64,000 bases of DNA from an uncultured Verrucomicrobia subdivision 3 bacterium (GCA_903865745.1 CAIPKV010000059.1:69487-133486); one strand, 5' to 3'; counted from the first letter of the stretch, positions 7,980 through 64,000 are shown. The notes: generated by a model from the sequence alone, not told the origin. Made by a program: numbers and translations.

Positions 7980-8597
7980 CTACGTGCTCATGTGGCTGAC
8001 TGACTCGCTCCATTCGCTGCGCTGGTTGCCCACGCCCAATACGCGGATGCGGATGCCATATAACTGGCCGGGCACGAGGCCTGCCAGCACGATATTATGC
8101 GGGTCGGTGAAGTTTTCCCAATGGCCCCAAACGCCTGCCACCGTGCTGATTTCCACTTGATACGTCCACGCCTCCGGGTCGATTACCACCGTGAGACCGA
8201 GCTTGGTGGAGGCCACGTTGGCGATGGCGGTGATGGAGGAACCCGTGACAATCGACGCATTATGGGTCAGGTTGGCAAGCTCGAAGCCGGAGGAGAGAAT
8301 GGTTTCCGCATCATTCTGGGCAATGTTTTCGACATAGTTGGCTTGCGTATCCATTTGCCCGATGACCAGCGCTTCGAGGATGTGCTTGTGCTCCGTATCG
8401 GCCATGGTGCCTTGCTCCGTTTTCACCGTGGCGGCAATCAGGTCTTTAGCCGTGGTATCCATCAGCGCCGGGTCTACGTCCGGCTTGATGAATTTGATGT
8501 TGCCGTTCATTTTGCCACTCACCGCCAGGGATTTGTTGGCGAGCGGTGCGCCCGTGAGCAGCCGATACGCGCGTTTGATTTTGTTTTTAGTTTTCAT
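7980..8597 (-). CDS. Small protein with helical N-domain and C-terminal FN3-like domain (family member P1)
   Basis: This 205-aa ORF has a C-terminus with an FN3 signature: WTYQVEISTVAGVWGHWENFTDPHNIVLAGLVPGQLYGIRIRVLGVGNQRSEWSESV. It has the same length and architecture as the ORF at 32232-32852 (..FSGLIPGQIYCVQVSVAGTAGTSDWSAW..). The antisense 197-aa ORF at 8097-8690 has no recognisable features. Confidence 0.6.
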   Translation of the reverse strand: MKTKNKIKRAYRLLTGAPLANKSLAVSGKMNGNIKFIKPDVDPALMDTTAKDLIAATVKTEQGTMADTEHKHILEALVIGQMDTQANYVENIAQNDAETILSSGFELANLTHNASIVTGSSITAIANVASTKLGLTVVIDPEAWTYQVEISTVAGVWGHWENFTDPHNIVLAGLVPGQLYGIRIRVLGVGNQRSEWSESVSHMST

Positions 8598-8719: not shown

Positions 8720-9120
8720 ACGACCTTTCGGGCAGATATATTTTATGCCAGGCGGAATGAAATTGACGATGCTTCCAGCCAAGTTGACTGCAAGCGCAGT
8801 GACTTGACCGATTAGCGCGGCCACAAAACCTGCCAGCCACGGCAGATTTACCGCCGTCGGCATGACGGCGACGACAGTCGGTGCCACGTTTACTACTCCC
8901 GGCATGGCGATGACTGTAGTCGGCATGACAAACCTTACAGTGTTCGTGACGAACCCTGTAGTCGGGATGACAAACCAAATCTTCGGCAAGGCAAACTCAA
9001 CAGTGAACGGTGGCAAACACTATCTTCGGGATGACAAACCTTACAGTGTTCGTGGCATCGCTTACAGTCGGCGTGGCAAACCCTGCAGTGTTTGTGGCCC
9101 CCAAACGGGCAAAAAGTGGC
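8720..9120 (-). repeat. Array 1: about 19 degenerate tandem units of 21 bp (two units are 22 bp)
   Basis: On the minus strand, units begin GCCAC/GTCAT at 9120, 9098, 9077, 9056, 9035, 9014, 8992, 8971, 8950, 8929, 8908, 8887 and 8866, and continue in register to about 8720. The consensus is GYCAYGMMGACTGTAAGGTTT. The units at 9056 and 8950 match at 20 of 21 positions. Confidence 0.85.
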
Positions 9121-9732
9121 TTTTTCGTCATAAAAACGCATAAAACCCTGAAATTTGCTCTTTTCTCGCTGGCAGATGGTCAAATAGCGACAGTTGCAGC
9201 CGGGGGAATTTAACGCCAAGGCGCGAAGACGCCAAGACGCGGGATGACAGGTGGAGCGAGACCGGCCAATTGGTTCTGGCGAATCCTGAAAAGATCAAAT
9301 TACCAGCCCAAGCTTGTCCGGCTTGCGCAGCCTTGGGTATGAACACTGCGATTCTTTCTACCTAGAATGAATTTTATGATTCAAACAAATCAATTCCGTA
9401 TTCTCTGTGGTTGCCACAGTAGATTTTAGTTTCAGCAATCGAAACCACTGCCAGCTAAGTGGAAAACCCCGATTCGACAACAAAATCTAAAAACGTTCAA
9501 AGTGAACTTTTGGTGACAAAGCCAGAAGTGGACCTTCATTTTAGAATGAAATATTTATAAAATACATAAATTCAATATTTTACAATATATTTTAACGCGT
9601 CATAAAATCGGCGCAGCATGTCCTAAGACATGAAGTTTTTGTTTCGCTAGTCTGTTAGAGTGTTCGGACTTGAAGCCCCACTTGGGTGGGTCAAGCTACG
9701 TAGAAAACCAAAAACCGGAACAAAAAATAAAA

Positions 9733-10434
9733 ATGAAAAATAAAATGTATCAAGCTGCGATACTCGCCGTCCTCGGACTGGCCAGTGTCTCGGCGGTGCA
9801 AGCGGCCTCGTACAATGGCGACTTGCTGATCGGCCTCACCACGCAGAGCGGCAACGACGTGGTCTATGACCTCGGCTCGTACTCCTCCCTCACCTACGGC
9901 GAAACCTGGGATTTGTCCTCGGCCATTTCCGCTGCCGGCCTCTCCCTCACGGGTTCCACGCTCTGGGGTATCATCGGTGCCCAGAACGTCAGCGGCACCC
10001 GTTACGCTTATATCACTGGCAATAGCGCCAACAGCATTCCCGGCATCACGGCTTGGAACAAAATTAATACCGGCGTGGCCACCATTTACAACTCTTTGAG
10101 CACGGCTGGCGCAGGCAATTACGGAACTCCTAGTTCGTCGCTTACCTACAGCTGGAATCAGCAAACGGCCCAAGGCGGTGCCGCCACCGGCACGGCGTTC
10201 TCAGCTGTTTCCGCTAATCCGAACTCGACGGGTTTCAATTACTTTCAAGCAATTTACCAGCAGGTTGCTGGTGGTTCACCGGCTACGGATGTTGGCGGTT
10301 TCAGCCTCTCCTCCGCTGGTGTCTTGACGTTCGAAACCGTTCCGGAGCCCGGCACCTACGCCATGATGGCCGTGGGCGGCGGTTTCCTGATGCTCGTTGG
10401 TCGCAATAAATTTGGTCGCAAACAACAATCCTAA
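9733..10434 (+). CDS. PEP-CTERM-anchored secreted protein
   Basis: It has a signal peptide (MKNKMYQAAILAVLGLASVSAVQA). The C-terminus reads VPEPGTYAMMAVGGGFLMLVGRNKFGRKQQS, which is a PEP motif, a TM helix and a basic tail. The track ORF starts at a TTG at 9670, and the ATG at 9733 is preferred. Confidence 0.8.
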   Translation: MKNKMYQAAILAVLGLASVSAVQAASYNGDLLIGLTTQSGNDVVYDLGSYSSLTYGETWDLSSAISAAGLSLTGSTLWGIIGAQNVSGTRYAYITGNSANSIPGITAWNKINTGVATIYNSLSTAGAGNYGTPSSSLTYSWNQQTAQGGAATGTAFSAVSANPNSTGFNYFQAIYQQVAGGSPATDVGGFSLSSAGVLTFETVPEPGTYAMMAVGGGFLMLVGRNKFGRKQQS

Positions 10435-15199: not shown

Positions 15200-15233
15200 C
15201 CCCCTGCAAAATTGATTTTTGCAGGGGGTTTTG
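15200..15233 (+). terminator. Rho-independent terminator after the 13997-15178 gene
   Basis: There is a perfect 12-bp stem, CCCCCTGCAAAA-ttgat-TTTTGCAGGGGG, followed by TTTTG. The track start of the next ORF (15212) lies inside this hairpin loop. Confidence 0.75.
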
Positions 15234-15427
15234 TTTATCTAACGCCTTGGTTAATCTGTCGAAGAACCCAAATGCGCCCATTAAAAAGAGTAATATTTGC
15301 GGTTTCGGCGGAATTGGCCGACGCGGTTAACCGGAGCTGTTATGTCGCAGGCTTGCTGGCTGATTGTCACACATTTGTAACCAAGCTGACATGGTTTTGT
15401 AGCGTGGTGTTTGCACCATTGCCCGCC

Positions 15428-17173
15428 ATGCGAAAGAACGAAACGAATCGCCAGGCTGCCTGGCTGACCAGCCTGCTGCTGATTCCGGCGGTTTTATGCG
15501 CAGATAACGCTTTGTGTGCTGATGCTGCCAGCGCCAACAATGCCAGCGATGCGAGCGATCTGCTGTTGAATTTATTTATTGAAAAGGGCTATGTCAGCAA
15601 AGCCGAGGCGGAAAAAGTCAAGGCTGAGGCGGAAAAGCGTCAGGCGGAACTAGATCAATACAAGGCTGAGGCGGAGCAGTACAAGACCGAGACCGAACAG
15701 CTCAAGGCGGATGTGGCCCAACTCAAAGCCAACGAGGAATCGTATCGGACTAATGCCGTACCCAGCTATTTGCCGGCCGCTAAATGGAAAATTAATCCTG
15801 GCGACAAATCTATCGAGCTGTTTGGCGATATCCGGATGCGTTACGAAGACCGCCAAATTCAAGACCCCAAAGGTAACAAGGTAACTTGGGATCGGCTGCG
15901 TTATTCCTTGCGCCTAGGTATGCGGGGAGAGGTCTTTGATGATGTTTATTACGGTTTCCGGTTGGAAACTTCCTCCAACCCGCGCTCGTCCTTCAACACG
16001 TTGGGTACGCCCACCGGCTCGTCGACTGCCCAGTATCCGAATCCGTTCACTAAAAACAATGAGACCTTGAATGTTGGTGAGGCCTATATTGGTTTAAAGT
16101 ATGGTGGTTGGCTGGATGTAGTGATGGGCAAGATGCCCAATCCGCTCTTTACCTCGACGATGGTCTGGAGTCCGGCCATAAGCCCCTCTGGTGCTGCCGA
16201 AACTCTGACCCACGCGGTGGGCGATATGGATTTATCCGTGACCTTGGGCCAGTTCATTTATCAGGCCACCAACCCCAACCAGTCATCGCAAGGGTTTTTG
16301 CCGCAGAACGCGAATAATTCCAGCCAGCCTTTTTTGATGGCCTTCCAAGGCAAGATCGACTATCACCTGACCAAAACGGTAAACTTCAAGGTGGCACCCG
16401 TTTTGTACTATTACACCCGTTATCAAAACGGCCAGAACCCGTCCGCAAATGGTGCTTATTACAGCCCGGACTTTTCGGGAACCTATGTGGGTCAGGGACA
16501 AAAAGTCGGGGTAAATGGTGTGCCGGCTTCCTATAACTTGGCCGGTAGCACTCCGGGCTTTGACGGCTATTATGCGAATCAAACCGGCATCAACGATCTG
16601 TTGGTTCTCGATATTCCTTTGGAAGTCAGCGTAAACCTTAAAAAAGTAAAAGTGCGTTTCTACGGAGATTACGCCCAGAACCTTCAGGGTAAAGAACGTG
16701 CCGATGCCGCGTACAATGCGGCTAATTCATTCTACTTCTCGGACAACGGTCCCGGCGCGGGGCAGATCAACCCGATTAATTCACCCCAAACGCATGATAT
16801 TCGCGCTTATCAGTTTGGCATTGGCGTGGGCAGCACCAATCTCATTTATGGGCCGTCACAAGGATTAGTTTACGGCAACGAATCAAAAAAGAACGCTTGG
16901 GAAGTGCGAACCTACTGGCAGCATATCGAACAATACTCACTGGATCCCAATCTGATTGACTCTGACTTCTTTAATGCCACCGAAAACGAACAGGGCGTCT
17001 ATGCCGCAATTGCCTATGGTTTGTTTGACAATGTGATAGCGACGGTGCGCTACGGCTATGCCCGGCGTATCAATGACCAACTGGGTACTGGTGGCAGCAG
17101 CGGCGATCTTCCGCAAATGAATCCGCTGAACTGCTACAGCATCTTTCAATTTGATCTAGGTGTCAGATTCTAA
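15428..17173 (+). CDS. Porin-like outer-membrane beta-barrel with N-terminal coiled coil
   Basis: The ATG at 15428 gives the signal peptide MRKNETNRQAAWLTSLLLIPAVLCA. It is followed by a KAEAE-rich coiled coil (AEAEKVKAEAEKRQAELDQYKAEAEQYKTETEQLKADVAQLK). The rest shows an alternating beta-strand pattern and ends FQFDLGVRF (terminal Phe). Confidence 0.65.
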   Translation: MRKNETNRQAAWLTSLLLIPAVLCADNALCADAASANNASDASDLLLNLFIEKGYVSKAEAEKVKAEAEKRQAELDQYKAEAEQYKTETEQLKADVAQLKANEESYRTNAVPSYLPAAKWKINPGDKSIELFGDIRMRYEDRQIQDPKGNKVTWDRLRYSLRLGMRGEVFDDVYYGFRLETSSNPRSSFNTLGTPTGSSTAQYPNPFTKNNETLNVGEAYIGLKYGGWLDVVMGKMPNPLFTSTMVWSPAISPSGAAETLTHAVGDMDLSVTLGQFIYQATNPNQSSQGFLPQNANNSSQPFLMAFQGKIDYHLTKTVNFKVAPVLYYYTRYQNGQNPSANGAYYSPDFSGTYVGQGQKVGVNGVPASYNLAGSTPGFDGYYANQTGINDLLVLDIPLEVSVNLKKVKVRFYGDYAQNLQGKERADAAYNAANSFYFSDNGPGAGQINPINSPQTHDIRAYQFGIGVGSTNLIYGPSQGLVYGNESKKNAWEVRTYWQHIEQYSLDPNLIDSDFFNATENEQGVYAAIAYGLFDNVIATVRYGYARRINDQLGTGGSSGDLPQMNPLNCYSIFQFDLGVRF

Positions 17174-47646: not shown

Positions 47647-47795
47647 GAAGAAATTCGCCTAAAGAAACAACCAGTTTAGTAGGTCGCCACTGAAAAGTCC
47701 GGCGCGGCTACCGGAACCGGCGCCGCCCCAATCGCCCATAGATTTGCCATTGCCGCGTCGAAAAACCCATAAATGAGTCCGTTTCACCCTCAAGC

Positions 47796-48026
47796 GCGTA
47801 TTCGTTTGCTACAAACGCATATGCAAATAGACCATCCGCATATGCAAACGTGGCATCCGCATATGCAACTGCGGTATTCGCGTATGCAAATGGGGCAAGT
47901 GCATATGCCATTGGGGCATTCGCATACGCAGATGCTCCAATTGCATATGCGGATGCGACAATCGCATAGGCGATTGCCATAAACAAACACGCGGATGTTC
48001 CAAAGGAACACGCAGTTGCCGTCCCC
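47796..48026. repeat. Array 3: 11 tandem units of exactly 21 bp carrying a GCATATGC palindrome
   Basis: Core starts lie at 47817, 47838, 47859, 47901 and 47943 (perfect GCATATGC). One-mismatch cores lie at 47880, 47922 and 47964. More degenerate units lie at 47796, 47985 and 48006. Confidence 0.9.
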
Positions 48027-48091
48027 GCGTGGGCCAGCCGGTATTCCATATCTGTGTTTCATCTGGGTCCATCTGTGGCTAAAATCCCCGC

Positions 48092-60987: not shown

Positions 60988-61902
60988 ATGTATTCCTTTT
61001 CAACCTGCTGGAATTCCGCCCGCCACACCGATGGCCGCGCCATGCTGCGTGAGATTCGGGAGCTGGGTTTTGAATATGCTGAATTAAGCCACGGCATCCG
61101 CATCAGCCTCGTTCCAGGTATTCTCGAAGCCGTGCAAGCGGGCGAGATTAAGATTTCCACGCTGCACAATTTCTGTCCCCTGCCAGTGGGCGTTGACAAG
61201 CCGTCGCCGAATCTTTTTGAGTTTTCCTCCGACAAAGAGCGCGACCGTCAGCTCGCCGTGAAGCACACCCTCAACACGTTTAACTTTGCGGTGAAGGTCG
61301 GCGCGCCGCTCGTCGTGCTGCACTTTGGCAGCATGGACCTGAAGGATTACACGGGCAAACTCAAGGAACTCCTCGAACGCGGCGAAAAAGGTTCGCCGAA
61401 AATATTGAAAGTTGTCGCCGAGGCCAATGCCGCGCGCGAGGCGAAGAAGAAGAAAGCCTACGACCATGCCCGCGATACGTTGCGCGAGCTTTATGGCGAA
61501 GCCAAGGCGCGCGGACTAAAGCTAGGCATTGAGATCCGCGAAGCCGTCGAGGAACTGCCCGTTGAATCCGACTTTGCCGCCCTGTTGAAGGAGTTTCCCG
61601 CGCCCGTCGTTTATTACTGGCACGATGTCGGCCACGCGCAGATCAAGTCCGACTTCGGGTTCATCGACCACGCGAAGTTTCTGGCCGAGCGTGCCGACCG
61701 GCTGGCCGGCTTCCACATCCACGACGTGAAATTTCCTGCCCGCGACCATTTTCCACCCGGCGGCGGCGACATTGATTTTGCCGCACTCGCGCCGCTCGTG
61801 AAACCGGAGCACATCAAGGTGTTTGAGTTAAGCCCCAAGGTGCCGGTGGATTCCGTCCGCCCCAGCGTCGCACATCTGAAACGTATCTGGGGCGAGGCAT
61901 AA
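60988..61902 (+). CDS. Sugar-phosphate isomerase/epimerase (xylose-isomerase-like TIM barrel)
   Basis: This 304-aa ORF shows the AP-endonuclease-2/TIM-barrel pattern (FEYAELSHG.., VVLHFGS.., LGIEIRE.., HIHDV). Confidence 0.7.
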   Translation: MYSFSTCWNSARHTDGRAMLREIRELGFEYAELSHGIRISLVPGILEAVQAGEIKISTLHNFCPLPVGVDKPSPNLFEFSSDKERDRQLAVKHTLNTFNFAVKVGAPLVVLHFGSMDLKDYTGKLKELLERGEKGSPKILKVVAEANAAREAKKKKAYDHARDTLRELYGEAKARGLKLGIEIREAVEELPVESDFAALLKEFPAPVVYYWHDVGHAQIKSDFGFIDHAKFLAERADRLAGFHIHDVKFPARDHFPPGGGDIDFAALAPLVKPEHIKVFELSPKVPVDSVRPSVAHLKRIWGEA

Positions 61903-62044
61903 TTAAATAGCTTGCGGTCTCAAATAAATGGCAGAGCATCGGAGCATTCCCCGCTGAATGGCGGGATGTAGTAGGCTGTAATCAAATGTTGGTTTTCGAC
62001 AACGACTCCCTGCCTGCGGGTCTTTGCCGAAGGAGCACAACATT

Positions 62045-62422
62045 ATGAGCTACATCGACCCTGATCAATTGCATGGCGCGCTGGATGGTTTGATCACCTT
62101 CACCGGCAAAAACGCCGCCGCCATCACCGCCGGTGACTTGGATCCCGTCGGTGTTACCACCAAGCTGACGGCCATCCGCGACGGACTCAAAGGCACGAAA
62201 GACATCCGTGACGGAATCAGAACCGAACTGACCACCGCGCAGCAGGCTTTTGCCGGAGCGGCCGCGACTAACTACACCGCCTTTAGCAGCCTGGTGGACG
62301 CCATCTCCGGTGCGTTGGGCAAGACCACGCCGCTCGCCCACCAGGCGTTGAACTACCGGATGCACCTCAACATCCCCGCGCAACATCGTACGCCCGCGCC
62401 CGTTCCGCCGGTTACTGTCTAA
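62045..62422 (+). CDS. Small helical hypothetical protein (P3, possible N-domain-only relative of P1/P2)
   Basis: The ATG at 62045 is preceded by AAGGAG with an 8-nt spacing. The sequence is MSYIDPDQLHGALDGLITFTGKNAAAITAGDLDPVGVTTKLTAIRDGL... A strong terminator follows. Confidence 0.6.
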   Translation: MSYIDPDQLHGALDGLITFTGKNAAAITAGDLDPVGVTTKLTAIRDGLKGTKDIRDGIRTELTTAQQAFAGAAATNYTAFSSLVDAISGALGKTTPLAHQALNYRMHLNIPAQHRTPAPVPPVTV

Positions 62423-62465
62423 GAATGGGACGATTCTTCGCAAGTCATTCAACTTAAGGTAGCAA

Positions 62466-62500
62466 CTGAGCCGCTTATTCAAAAAGCGGCTCAGCTTTTT
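62466..62500 (+). terminator. Rho-independent terminator of the P3 gene
   Basis: There is a perfect 11-bp stem, CTGAGCCGCTT-attcaaa-AAGCGGCTCAG, followed by CTTTTT. Its 3' arm is also the first unit of array 4. Confidence 0.8.
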
Positions 62501-62775
62501 GTAAAAGCGGCGTCGCTTTCGGGAAAAGCGGGTCCGCCTACGGCGACGGCGGGTCGGCTTTTTGGATAAGTGGCTCCGCTTTTCCCGTAGGCGGGACCAG
62601 AGTTGCCGACGGCGGGTTCGCCTTGGCCGACGGCGACGCGGCTTTTGGCAAAGGCGGGTCAGCCTTTTGAATAAGCGGCTCCGCCTTTCCCGACGGCGAC
62701 GTCGCTTTTTGCATAAGCGGGTCCGCCGGTGGCGACGGCGAACCCGCTTTCGCTGCCGGCGAGGCTGGATTGAAG
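62484..62775 (+). repeat. Array 4: 14 tandem units of exactly 21 bp (42-bp super-period) built from small GC hairpin/palindrome units
   Basis: The GCGG/GCGA core lies at 62486, 62507, 62528, 62549, 62570, 62591, 62612, 62633, 62654, 62675, 62696, 62717, 62738 and 62759. All spacings are 21 bp. Confidence 0.9.
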
Positions 62776-62818
62776 TTGTCTCGCCATTTGCGCGTAAATC
62801 GTCAATCGTAAATCGTAA

Positions 62819-64000
62819 ATGACCGCCGCGTCGTCCAGAGCCATCGCCAGAGATATTGTTGCCACCTTGCAACAGGCTGGCTTCGCCGCCTTCTGGGTGG
62901 GCGGTTGTGTGCGCGATTTCCTGCTCGGCCGCGAACCGCAGGATTTTGATATCGCCACGGATGCCAAACCGGAGTCGGTCGAAAAACTCTTCGCCAAGAC
63001 CATTCCGGTCGGCAAGAAATTCGGCGTGATCATCGTGGTCGCGGGCGGGCAGCAATTTCAGGTCGCCACGTTCCGGGCAGAGGCGGAATACCAGGACGGT
63101 CGCCGGCCGGAGAAAGTGGTTTTCGCCAACGCCGAGGCGGATGCGTCGCGCCGCGATTTCACGGTGAACGGGCTGTTCTACGATCCGCTGACGAATAAAA
63201 TCCACGACTGGGTTGGCGGCGAAACCGATTTGCGCGCTAAAATCATCCGGACCATTGGCCGGCCCGAGGAGCGTTTTGGCGAAGATCATCTGCGGATGCT
63301 GCGCGCGGTGCGGTTTGCGGCGCAGTTGGATTTTGAAATCGAGCCGGAAACTTTTGCCGCCATTAAAACGCTGGCGTCGAAAATTAAAATCATCAGTGCC
63401 GAGCGGGTGCGCGATGAGTTGCTTAAAGTATTTTTGCCGCCGCACGCCGCGCGCGGTTTGGTTTTGCTGCGCGACAGCGGGTTGCTGGAACATGTTTTGC
63501 CGGAACTCGCGGCGACGGTCGGCTGCGAGCAGTCGCCCGATTATCATCCCGAAGGCAGTGTGTTTAACCACATCCGCCTGATGCTGGAAAAACTTCCGGC
63601 CCAGCCTTCGCCGTCAGACGACTCCAGTGCGGCAGGCGGGCTGGAACTTTTGCCTTGGGCTGTGTTATTGCACGACATCGCCAAGCCGGTCACGGCGGCA
63701 AAGGATTTGGCGACGGGCAAAATTCATTTTTATGGCCACGAGAAAGTTGGCGCGGAAATGGCGGAAATGATTTTGCAGCGCCTGAAGTTTCCGAACCGGC
63801 CGACGGAAGAAATCGTCGCCGCGGTGCGGCATCACATGCAATTCAAGGACGTGAAGCTGATGCGCAAGGCGACGCTACGTCGATTGTTGCTGCGCGAAAC
63901 CTTCCCGCTGGAGCTGGCCTTGCACCGGCTGGATTGCCTGGGGTCCTCGGGCAATCTGGAGAACTACAACTTTCTGTTGGAGCAGGCGGAGGAATTAAAA
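62819..64000 (+). CDS. cca: CCA-adding tRNA nucleotidyltransferase (5' part, runs off the right edge)
   Basis: My own translation from the ATG at 62819 is MTAASSRAIAREIVATLQQAGFAAFWVGGCVRDFLLGREPQDFDIATDA...RRDFTVNGLFYD...ERFGEDHLRMLRAVRFAAQL...HD domain (LLHDIAKP). It is open through position 64000 (394 codons). It is missing from the ORF track because it has no stop in the window. The 529-aa minus-strand ORF at 61982-63571 is its antisense shadow. Confidence 0.9.
   Translation, partial: MTAASSRAIARDIVATLQQAGFAAFWVGGCVRDFLLGREPQDFDIATDAKPESVEKLFAKTIPVGKKFGVIIVVAGGQQFQVATFRAEAEYQDGRRPEKVVFANAEADASRRDFTVNGLFYDPLTNKIHDWVGGETDLRAKIIRTIGRPEERFGEDHLRMLRAVRFAAQLDFEIEPETFAAIKTLASKIKIISAERVRDELLKVFLPPHAARGLVLLRDSGLLEHVLPELAATVGCEQSPDYHPEGSVFNHIRLMLEKLPAQPSPSDDSSAAGGLELLPWAVLLHDIAKPVTAAKDLATGKIHFYGHEKVGAEMAEMILQRLKFPNRPTEEIVAAVRHHMQFKDVKLMRKATLRRLLLRETFPLELALHRLDCLGSSGNLENYNFLLEQAEELK

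Follow-up and report, generated by a model that had tools for sequence, protein, structure and literature searches.

A 21-nt phased repeat array inherited with a small helical protein gene in Verrucomicrobia: candidate binding sites for a protein

Between P3, a gene for a small helical protein, and cca in an uncultured Verrucomicrobia subdivision 3 bacterium lies a train of 21-nt repeats that begins inside a transcription terminator, and the question it raises is whether such an array works as DNA, as RNA or as coding sequence, or whether it is read by nothing at all. We analysed this locus within a stretch of 64,000 nt (the window), in which the gene order is rpsU, a TIM-barrel gene, P3 and cca, and compared it with about 50 P3 loci obtained from scans of genome and metagenome collections (individual loci are cited by L numbers). 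The features concerned, in window coordinates, are the following.

61898-61916, plus strand: candidate P3 promoter region, CATAAT followed by a GCTTGCG block conserved in class-A loci
61940-62044, plus strand: structured 5' leader of P3 (class A), conserved across aligned loci
62045-62422, plus strand: P3, a 125-aa all-helical protein, with its ATG start at 62045
62423-62465, plus strand: spacer between P3 and the array, with the family motif (T-rich)-CRTAAGTYRTTCA, in the window version CGCAAGTCATTCAAC at 62439-62453
62466-62501, plus strand: intrinsic terminator of P3, its stem made by the pairing of an inverted 'unit 0' with array unit 1, and with a T5 run after it
62482-62775, plus strand: array body, a non-coding run of 14 direct repeats, each exactly 21 nt long, consensus RAMGGCGGGTCCGCYTTTSSC

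The phasing of the array is as strict as the initial annotation had it. All 14 units at 62482-62775 are exactly 21 nt long, alignment to a cyclic profile needs no insertion or deletion in the window, and the described GCGG/GCGA core is found at unit positions 5-8 as GCGG or GCGA in 13 units and as GTGG in one. Identity at a lag of 21 nt is 0.564, against 0.269 +/- 0.027 in mononucleotide shuffles and 0.257 +/- 0.055 at other lags, and only two places in the 64-kb window match this level over 273 nt; lags of 42, 63, 84 and 105 nt give values as high as lag 21. A regular alternation of two unit types with a 42-bp super-period had also been proposed. However, units are just as alike at lag 42 (0.563) as at lag 21, and the 42-bp alternation holds only locally: the types follow one another in the order AAACAACCAACACC, TRF confines a 42-nt period to two copies at 62665-62750, and switching between types over 20 arrays is mildly above chance (135 of 227, against 117 +/- 6.8).

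The unit consensus is an 18-bp palindrome, and its degeneracy is mirror-symmetric: position 3 takes A/C where position 16 takes T/G, and position 8 takes G/A where position 11 takes C/T. The left half (GGCGG) is far better conserved than the right half, and the centre dinucleotide is far more commonly GT than AC. About half of the units read AAAR-GCGGGTCCGC-TTTTT, and some carry a GTAG or CTAC foot (GTAGGCGGG, CCGCCTAC). All body units share one orientation, only unit 0 being inverted. The array sequence is 100% identical in five independent contigs, as is the whole spacer between P3 and cca. The cca ATG at 62819 lies 44 nt past the end of the array, in agreement with the first description, and gene calls on identical metagenome contigs place the cca start at the same position. 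The small direct repeat reported near cca is also present, as four copies of CGTAAAT spanning 62793-62820; the fourth copy includes the cca start codon, so that a tandem repeat lies right over the translation start.

The terminator that had been recognized after the P3 stop is a hairpin, CTGAGCCGCTT-ATTCAAA-AAGCGGCTCAG, at 62466-62494, followed by CTTTTTGT. It has 11 pairs, seven of them G-C, and a loop of 7 nt, and lies 44 nt past the P3 stop; its 3' arm is indeed the first array unit, and the pairing of an inverted unit 0 with unit 1 is common to most P3 loci. In a consensus scan, this hairpin is the sole strong match to the terminator consensus. Over 25 loci, 97.4% of the cells in its stem pair, compared with 84.3% in shuffles, 7 of the 13 pairs show double compensatory changes, and its covariation score of 0.46, versus 0.18, was reached by none of 500 shuffles. 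Thus, the unit0:unit1 hairpin is a genuine intrinsic terminator, and the first array unit doubles as its 3' arm. With its T5 run it has the make-up that defines a Rho-independent terminator, whereas the other 13 units do not. Given that most of the array lies past this strong and covariation-backed terminator, most P3 transcripts should exclude it.

Because the covarying stem is built from the same sequence as the units, it serves as a positive control beside the negative result for the array body. When the right arms of 229 distinct units from 20 loci were dealt to other units, symmetric positions within the real units paired no more often than after this shuffling (all absolute z < 2). Pairing within units was 0.697 against 0.713 across units, and adjacent units paired at 0.722 versus 0.713 for random unit pairs. 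Hairpins within single units and between neighbouring ones were therefore rejected, and the array body is not a set of selected hairpins.

In the spacer ahead of the terminator, the motif CRTAAGTYRTTCA stands at the same place in most P3 loci, even where the array units differ, and it does not occur above chance elsewhere in the window. In three loci (L012 at ~805-875, L048 at ~2400-2465 and L054 at ~1020-1080) the P3 stop is separated from the array by an inserted nested palindrome of REP-like form, CCCTCACCC..CCCTCTCCCATCSGATGGGAGAGGG..GGGTGAGGG. This palindrome also lies 3' of a distant P3-like gene (L063 at ~515-580), and probably represents a mobile hairpin element that is dispersed in these genomes.

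The exact 125-aa product of P3 is called on 15 metagenome contigs, while a 132-aa form with a TTG start has no record among called genes; the N-terminus MSYIDPDQLHG is invariant in the family, and an excess at third codon positions confirms that the gene is coding. P3 has 39 close homologues, and a profile search gathers its relatives into 124 clusters. The named source records of the homologues are MAGs of Verrucomicrobiae, Verrucomicrobiia or Verrucomicrobia subdivision 3, with three titled Bifidobacteriaceae and two only 'bacterium'. The AF2 model (pLDDT 86) consists of four helices, one of them 58 residues long. No significant match was obtained in Pfam, NCBIfam, PADLOC, PHROGs, the PDB sequence profile search, or Foldseek against PDB and BFVD; weak ESAT-6/EsxB-like matches (E 0.16-9) are a lead only, and the distant P3-like proteins gave nothing informative against Pfam. 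The family is mildly basic (median pI 8.0; distant members 9.2; window copy 6.9). P3 was not found among viral contigs, nor was a paralogue found elsewhere in the window.

Upstream of P3, a promoter consensus scan gave one promoter-like site, ending at 61903, which is weak evidence, and a CTTGCR block is conserved ~130 nt upstream of the P3 ATG in class-A loci. The leader that follows contains a CCCGC/GCGGG hairpin at 61950-61965 with compensatory changes and a long-range helix of GTAGGC (61971-61976) with GCCTGC (62012-62017), near-invariant as GYAGGC/GCCTGC, after which comes the Shine-Dalgarno GGAG at 62032. In an alignment of 24 loci, 6 of its 14 predicted pairs show compensatory changes, and no Rfam family matches it; on this comparative evidence the class-A leader is a candidate new cis-regulatory RNA. 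Other P3 loci (L007, L020, L022, L015, L016 and others) have a second, different class of leader. We considered whether the array core is related to the GCGGGTC motif of the leader and rejected this, since the leader motif is constant where the core differs.

The central finding is that the array follows the gene. We counted only those distinct P3 loci whose sequence extends 150 nt or more past the stop, and a 21-nt phased array follows P3 in 39 of these 40, starting 0-100 nt past the stop on the same strand; in the 40th (L017), only a degenerate in-phase NNNGGC pattern is left. The association holds over P3 identities from 42% to 100%, and array position and orientation relative to P3 are identical at all loci. 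Elsewhere the neighbours of P3 are LNT, a chalcone synthase or a PEP-CTERM gene, and no ParA, ParM, TubZ or Rep partner gene recurs near P3 loci. That the array follows P3 in unrelated neighbourhoods makes gene and array look like one undescribed functional unit, a cassette of leader, P3, spacer motif, terminator and array in which the array is the non-coding cis element. Among distant P3-like genes, L063 and L067/L068 are without an array. At another, L064 (profile E 1.6e-10), the sequence CGGAAGATAC recurs at 21-nt spacing at 1893-1948 before the contig ends; its downstream sequence is too short to judge array presence, and the link between gene and array may thus reach beyond the MSYIDPD clade.

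What is kept between these arrays is the layout rather than the sequence. The core is GGCGGGTCCGCC in the main group, GGCACNNGTGCC in L015/L016 (that of L016 is also given as GGCACCGGTGCC) and GGGACGGTCGTCCC in L056; L052 has a core of the form GGCAGG..., L065 is dominated by GGGAGTTG-type units, and L046 and L047 by AGAGTTG-type units. In diverged lineages the core has been replaced in concert, with period, position and orientation unchanged. Units within arrays are only ~57-60% identical to one another, yet the units CCAGAGTTG, GCCTACGGC and GCCGGTGGC keep their relative order between lineages, and this conserved order of heterogeneous units indicates that the arrays are old and not newly expanded. 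Over 9,079 nt of arrays from 35 loci there are only ~9 indel events, one-base indels being present in the arrays of L012 and L054.

Taken together, the protected register, lineage-specific sequence, independent halves, two-turn period, position mostly beyond the terminator and co-inheritance with P3 lead us to favour, tentatively and short of an even chance, the reading that the array is a set of iteron- or centromere-like phased DNA sites for a protein, plausibly P3. The array would then act as duplex DNA, a series of degenerate, consensus-palindromic binding sites. Spaced 21 bp, exactly two helical turns, apart, such sites would all face the same side of the duplex, and a small oligomerising protein could assemble cooperatively along them; P3, as the sole conserved neighbour, is the obvious candidate reader. 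Independent halves with mirror-symmetric degeneracy are what is expected of half-sites for identical subunits and not of base-paired stems. Two other intergenic arrays in the window, which share the 21-bp period with unrelated motifs, also count in favour of phased DNA sites, as does the mildly basic character of the P3 family. The assembly could serve to titrate or autoregulate P3, to organise or insulate the chromosome locally, or to provide a handle like those used in segregation. That the relevant molecule would be duplex DNA and not RNA, that a protein would bind it and that P3 would be this protein are each inferred. The dimer-binding sites that had been offered as the alternative to a train of terminators, together with the link to P3, fit the data better than that train, with the binding itself putative.

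Several observations argue against phased DNA sites. P3 has no recognisable DNA-binding fold or structural neighbour, and the pI of the window copy is 6.9. No unit-like operator lies in the promoter or leader of P3, where even the highest scores do not exceed those in coding sequence, and there is no conserved ParA, ParM, TubZ or Rep partner. Many units and some whole arrays (L046, L047, L065) are not palindromic, so a symmetric dimer site is at best ancestral. The array drifts at about the rate of four-fold sites in P3, possibly faster between strains, and its fixed orientation to P3 and G.U-compatible centre GT would also fit a role as RNA.

Several known systems provide models for such phased loading. 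Iterons, F sopC (downstream of sopB), R1 parC and the O iterons of ori-lambda consist of ~20-bp repeats placed at integral helical turns; their units often contain a short dyad, and the array lies beside the gene of its reader protein, with Rep proteins loading on iterons, SopB on sopC and ParR on parC. In these arrays unit sequence is lineage-specific and copy number varies, while period and layout are kept. By analogy, the P3 array appears in its logic most like iterons and centromere arrays such as sopC and parC. It shares with them direct repeats at integral-turn phasing, here of exactly 21 nt with no indel in the window, as well as a lineage-specific unit sequence and a variable copy number under a constant period and layout. 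It also adjoins, and is co-inherited with, P3, its putative reader. In contrast to them, it is chromosomal, stand-alone and single-copy, begins inside an intrinsic terminator, has no partner ATPase, GTPase or Rep initiator at its loci, and has as candidate reader a 125-aa helical protein without a known DNA-binding fold.

Two further systems resemble the cassette in part. Like REP and BIME elements, the array consists of short G+C-rich extragenic palindromes clustered at the 3' end of a gene, some with a GTAG or CTAC foot, and tandem head-to-tail clusters have been described for some REP families (PMC3733652, PMC2817692, PMC3333891). Unlike REP and BIME elements, the body units keep one orientation without alternation and an exact spacing, their stems are without compensatory support, and they are tied to one gene family instead of occurring genome-wide. 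Outside the array, the unit has eight one-mismatch matches in 64 kb, seven of them inside long ORFs by the ORF list, and no similar family of short palindromes was found in the 64-kb window; identity with REP/BIME was rejected, as the unit is not dispersed within this window. The type III toxin-antitoxin system ToxI/ToxN likewise combines a small protein gene with a short direct-repeat array and a terminator between them, and its repeat sequence, too, co-varies with the protein lineage. However, the P3 cassette runs from gene through terminator to array, whereas ToxIN repeats lie upstream of ToxN, CptN or TenpN; the unit is 21 nt instead of ~34-40 nt, the arrays are far longer (up to ~19 units), and P3 is all-helical and without a PADLOC match.

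Among the alternatives to phased DNA sites, it is possible, though we consider it unlikely, that the array is transcribed and serves as an RNA platform, single-stranded or only loosely folded, that presents a motif every 21 nt to a multimeric protein, possibly P3. Such an RNA would arise by read-through of the P3 terminator or from a start of its own, and could be a sponge, a scaffold, an antitoxin-like RNA or a 3'-UTR element that determines the fate of P3 mRNA. The invariant orientation of the array to P3 and the sense-strand T-runs after the core in most lineages would fit this, and because GT is far commoner than AC at the unit centre, G.U pairing keeps the sense RNA self-complementary. 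In 19 of 20 main-type loci the sense strand has a more stable fold than the antisense (the two are equal in L033), the folding z-score of the whole array is -7 to -10 in the window, as it is at several further loci, and multimeric RNA-binding proteins likewise impose strict spacing. However, this excess of folding energy is not a conserved trait: z-scores vary among loci between -10 and -0.7, and lie at -0.7 to -3 in L013, L039, L043, L046, L047 and L050, AGAGTTG-type arrays (e.g. L046, L047) have neither a T-run nor excess folding energy, and in L015/L016 it is the antisense strand that folds better. A strong conserved terminator precedes 13 of the 14 units, covariation is absent within and between neighbouring units, and nothing in RNA favours a period of exactly 21. 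The array also has no match in Rfam at the gathering score, with only chance-level miRNA and sRNA matches (E at least 0.2).

No more probable to us is that the array is a neutral or nearly neutral minisatellite, in which the 3' arm and T-run of the P3 terminator act as a lasting slippage hotspot, whole units come and go and afterwards drift, and nothing reads the array. Unit number ranges from ~5 to 19. The comparison between strains that the initial annotation had called for showed differences of whole units (42, 63 and 21 nt) even with P3 96-100% identical, the pairs compared being L021 vs L023, L007 vs L024, L035 vs L036 and L030 vs L038. Whole-unit slippage would keep the phase automatically. 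Moreover, identity between orthologous arrays tracks, or falls below, that at P3 four-fold sites, and L021 and L023, whose P3 genes are 100% identical, differ at 10 of 301 array positions. The array may thus evolve faster than synonymous sites, or be error-prone in assemblies; the relatives are all metagenomic, and repeat assembly may add errors to these strain comparisons. Several observations count against neutrality: 39 of 40 loci have kept the array although bacterial genomes tend towards deletion, heterogeneous units keep their order, single-base indels occur only ~1 per kb when ~40% of positions have changed between units, diverged lineages have exchanged the entire unit consensus, and other terminators in the window have no such array. 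Absence or high variability of the array in relatives had been named as the sign of neutral slippage expansion. Variability was indeed found, in unit number and sequence, but absence almost never, and this weakens neutral slippage without doing more.

Quite improbable, in our view, is that the units are back-up terminators or an insulator, a series of weak hairpin-plus-U modules that would stop read-through from a strongly expressed P3 into downstream sequence and also transcription coming the other way. About half of the units do look like a minimal bidirectional terminator, and the cassette occurs in many contexts where insulation could help. However, the train of weak terminator-like modules first suggested for the array is not borne out, since the consensus scan gave two sites against 1.3 expected, with only one weak extra site (62691-62704) beyond unit0:unit1, and the stems of the units show no covariation, with an A.C mismatch at pair 8-11 in 22% of units. 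Arrays rich in AGAGTTG or GGGAGTTG lack T-runs, the arms in L015/L016 are only 2 nt apart, which rules out a stable hairpin there, and termination does not explain the exact 21-nt spacing.

That the array encodes a heptad repeat, read as KSGSAFx from the plus strand or as GPAYAKS from the in-phase antisense, or is what recently remains of one as a pseudogene, can be dismissed as extremely improbable. In favour of coding, the period equals seven codons, the codon-symmetric unit yields Gly/Ser/Ala heptads in both in-phase frames, no stop interrupts either of these frames in the arrays of L015 and L016, nor the plus frame in that of L019, and one gene caller places a 77-aa ORF in L008. Against it, stops occur in every frame in nearly all of 20 loci, L040 keeping several frames open, and the window array has no start codon; at 'codon 7', TGA should be depleted but equals TGC in frequency, the three phases hardly differ in information content (0.88, 1.00, 0.86), differences between orthologous arrays split 87:89:105 by phase (P3 for the same locus pair, e.g. 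13:7:39), the one-base indels of L012 and L054 shift the frame, and Pfam gives no match. A read-through or frameshift extension of P3 was likewise rejected: in most loci the array would be read in the -1 frame relative to P3, and the spacer has stops in that frame.

It is worth describing the other 21-bp arrays of the window in their own right. The second lies at 47806-47975, with eight units and the core palindrome GCATATGC, in the divergent region between the starts of trpE (47646, minus strand) and recF (48092, plus strand). It gives xAYAxxx heptads from both strands, and a 113-aa ORF (47708-48049, minus strand) that has no record as a called gene runs through it; no P3-like gene was found nearby. 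The third zone that is not part of an ORF, at ~8850-9090 with the motif GRNRTGRCAAAC, for which TRF also gives a 64-nt period, lies in a gap of ~1 kb between an ORF at 7980-8597 (minus strand) and a PEP-CTERM gene at 9670-10434; the adjacent 205-aa ORF was considered as a relative of P3 and rejected as unrelated. The fourth 21-bp zone, at 15578-15739, is ordinary coding sequence for KAEAEKx coiled-coil heptads inside the ORF at 15212-17173. Three unrelated intergenic arrays of the same period in 64 kb suggest a general phenomenon in this genome. It is possible, though less likely than not, that P3 and its array are an undescribed self-contained module of Verrucomicrobia (subdivision 3 and relatives) in which a small helical protein of a new fold class would assemble in register on its 21-nt phased array, as DNA or RNA, into a dedicated nucleoprotein structure, and that the other 21-bp arrays of the same genome would form with it one general, unrecognised class of phased non-coding arrays.

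Neither P3 nor its array is covered in Pfam, NCBIfam, PADLOC, PHROGs, PDB, BFVD or Rfam, and the two have travelled together through a large uncultured lineage of soil and peat. The locus also yields a practical rule for telling a palindromic consensus from real hairpins, namely that symmetric degeneracy occurs here without covariation while the terminator next door serves as the positive control. If nothing reads the array, it is an unusually long-lived bacterial minisatellite whose ban on single-base indels is unexplained. If a protein does read it, the array would parallel iteron and centromere systems as a stand-alone element of the chromosome, and a family of hypothetical proteins spanning 124 clusters would gain a function. 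There is a substantial chance that P3 and its array are a new kind of module.
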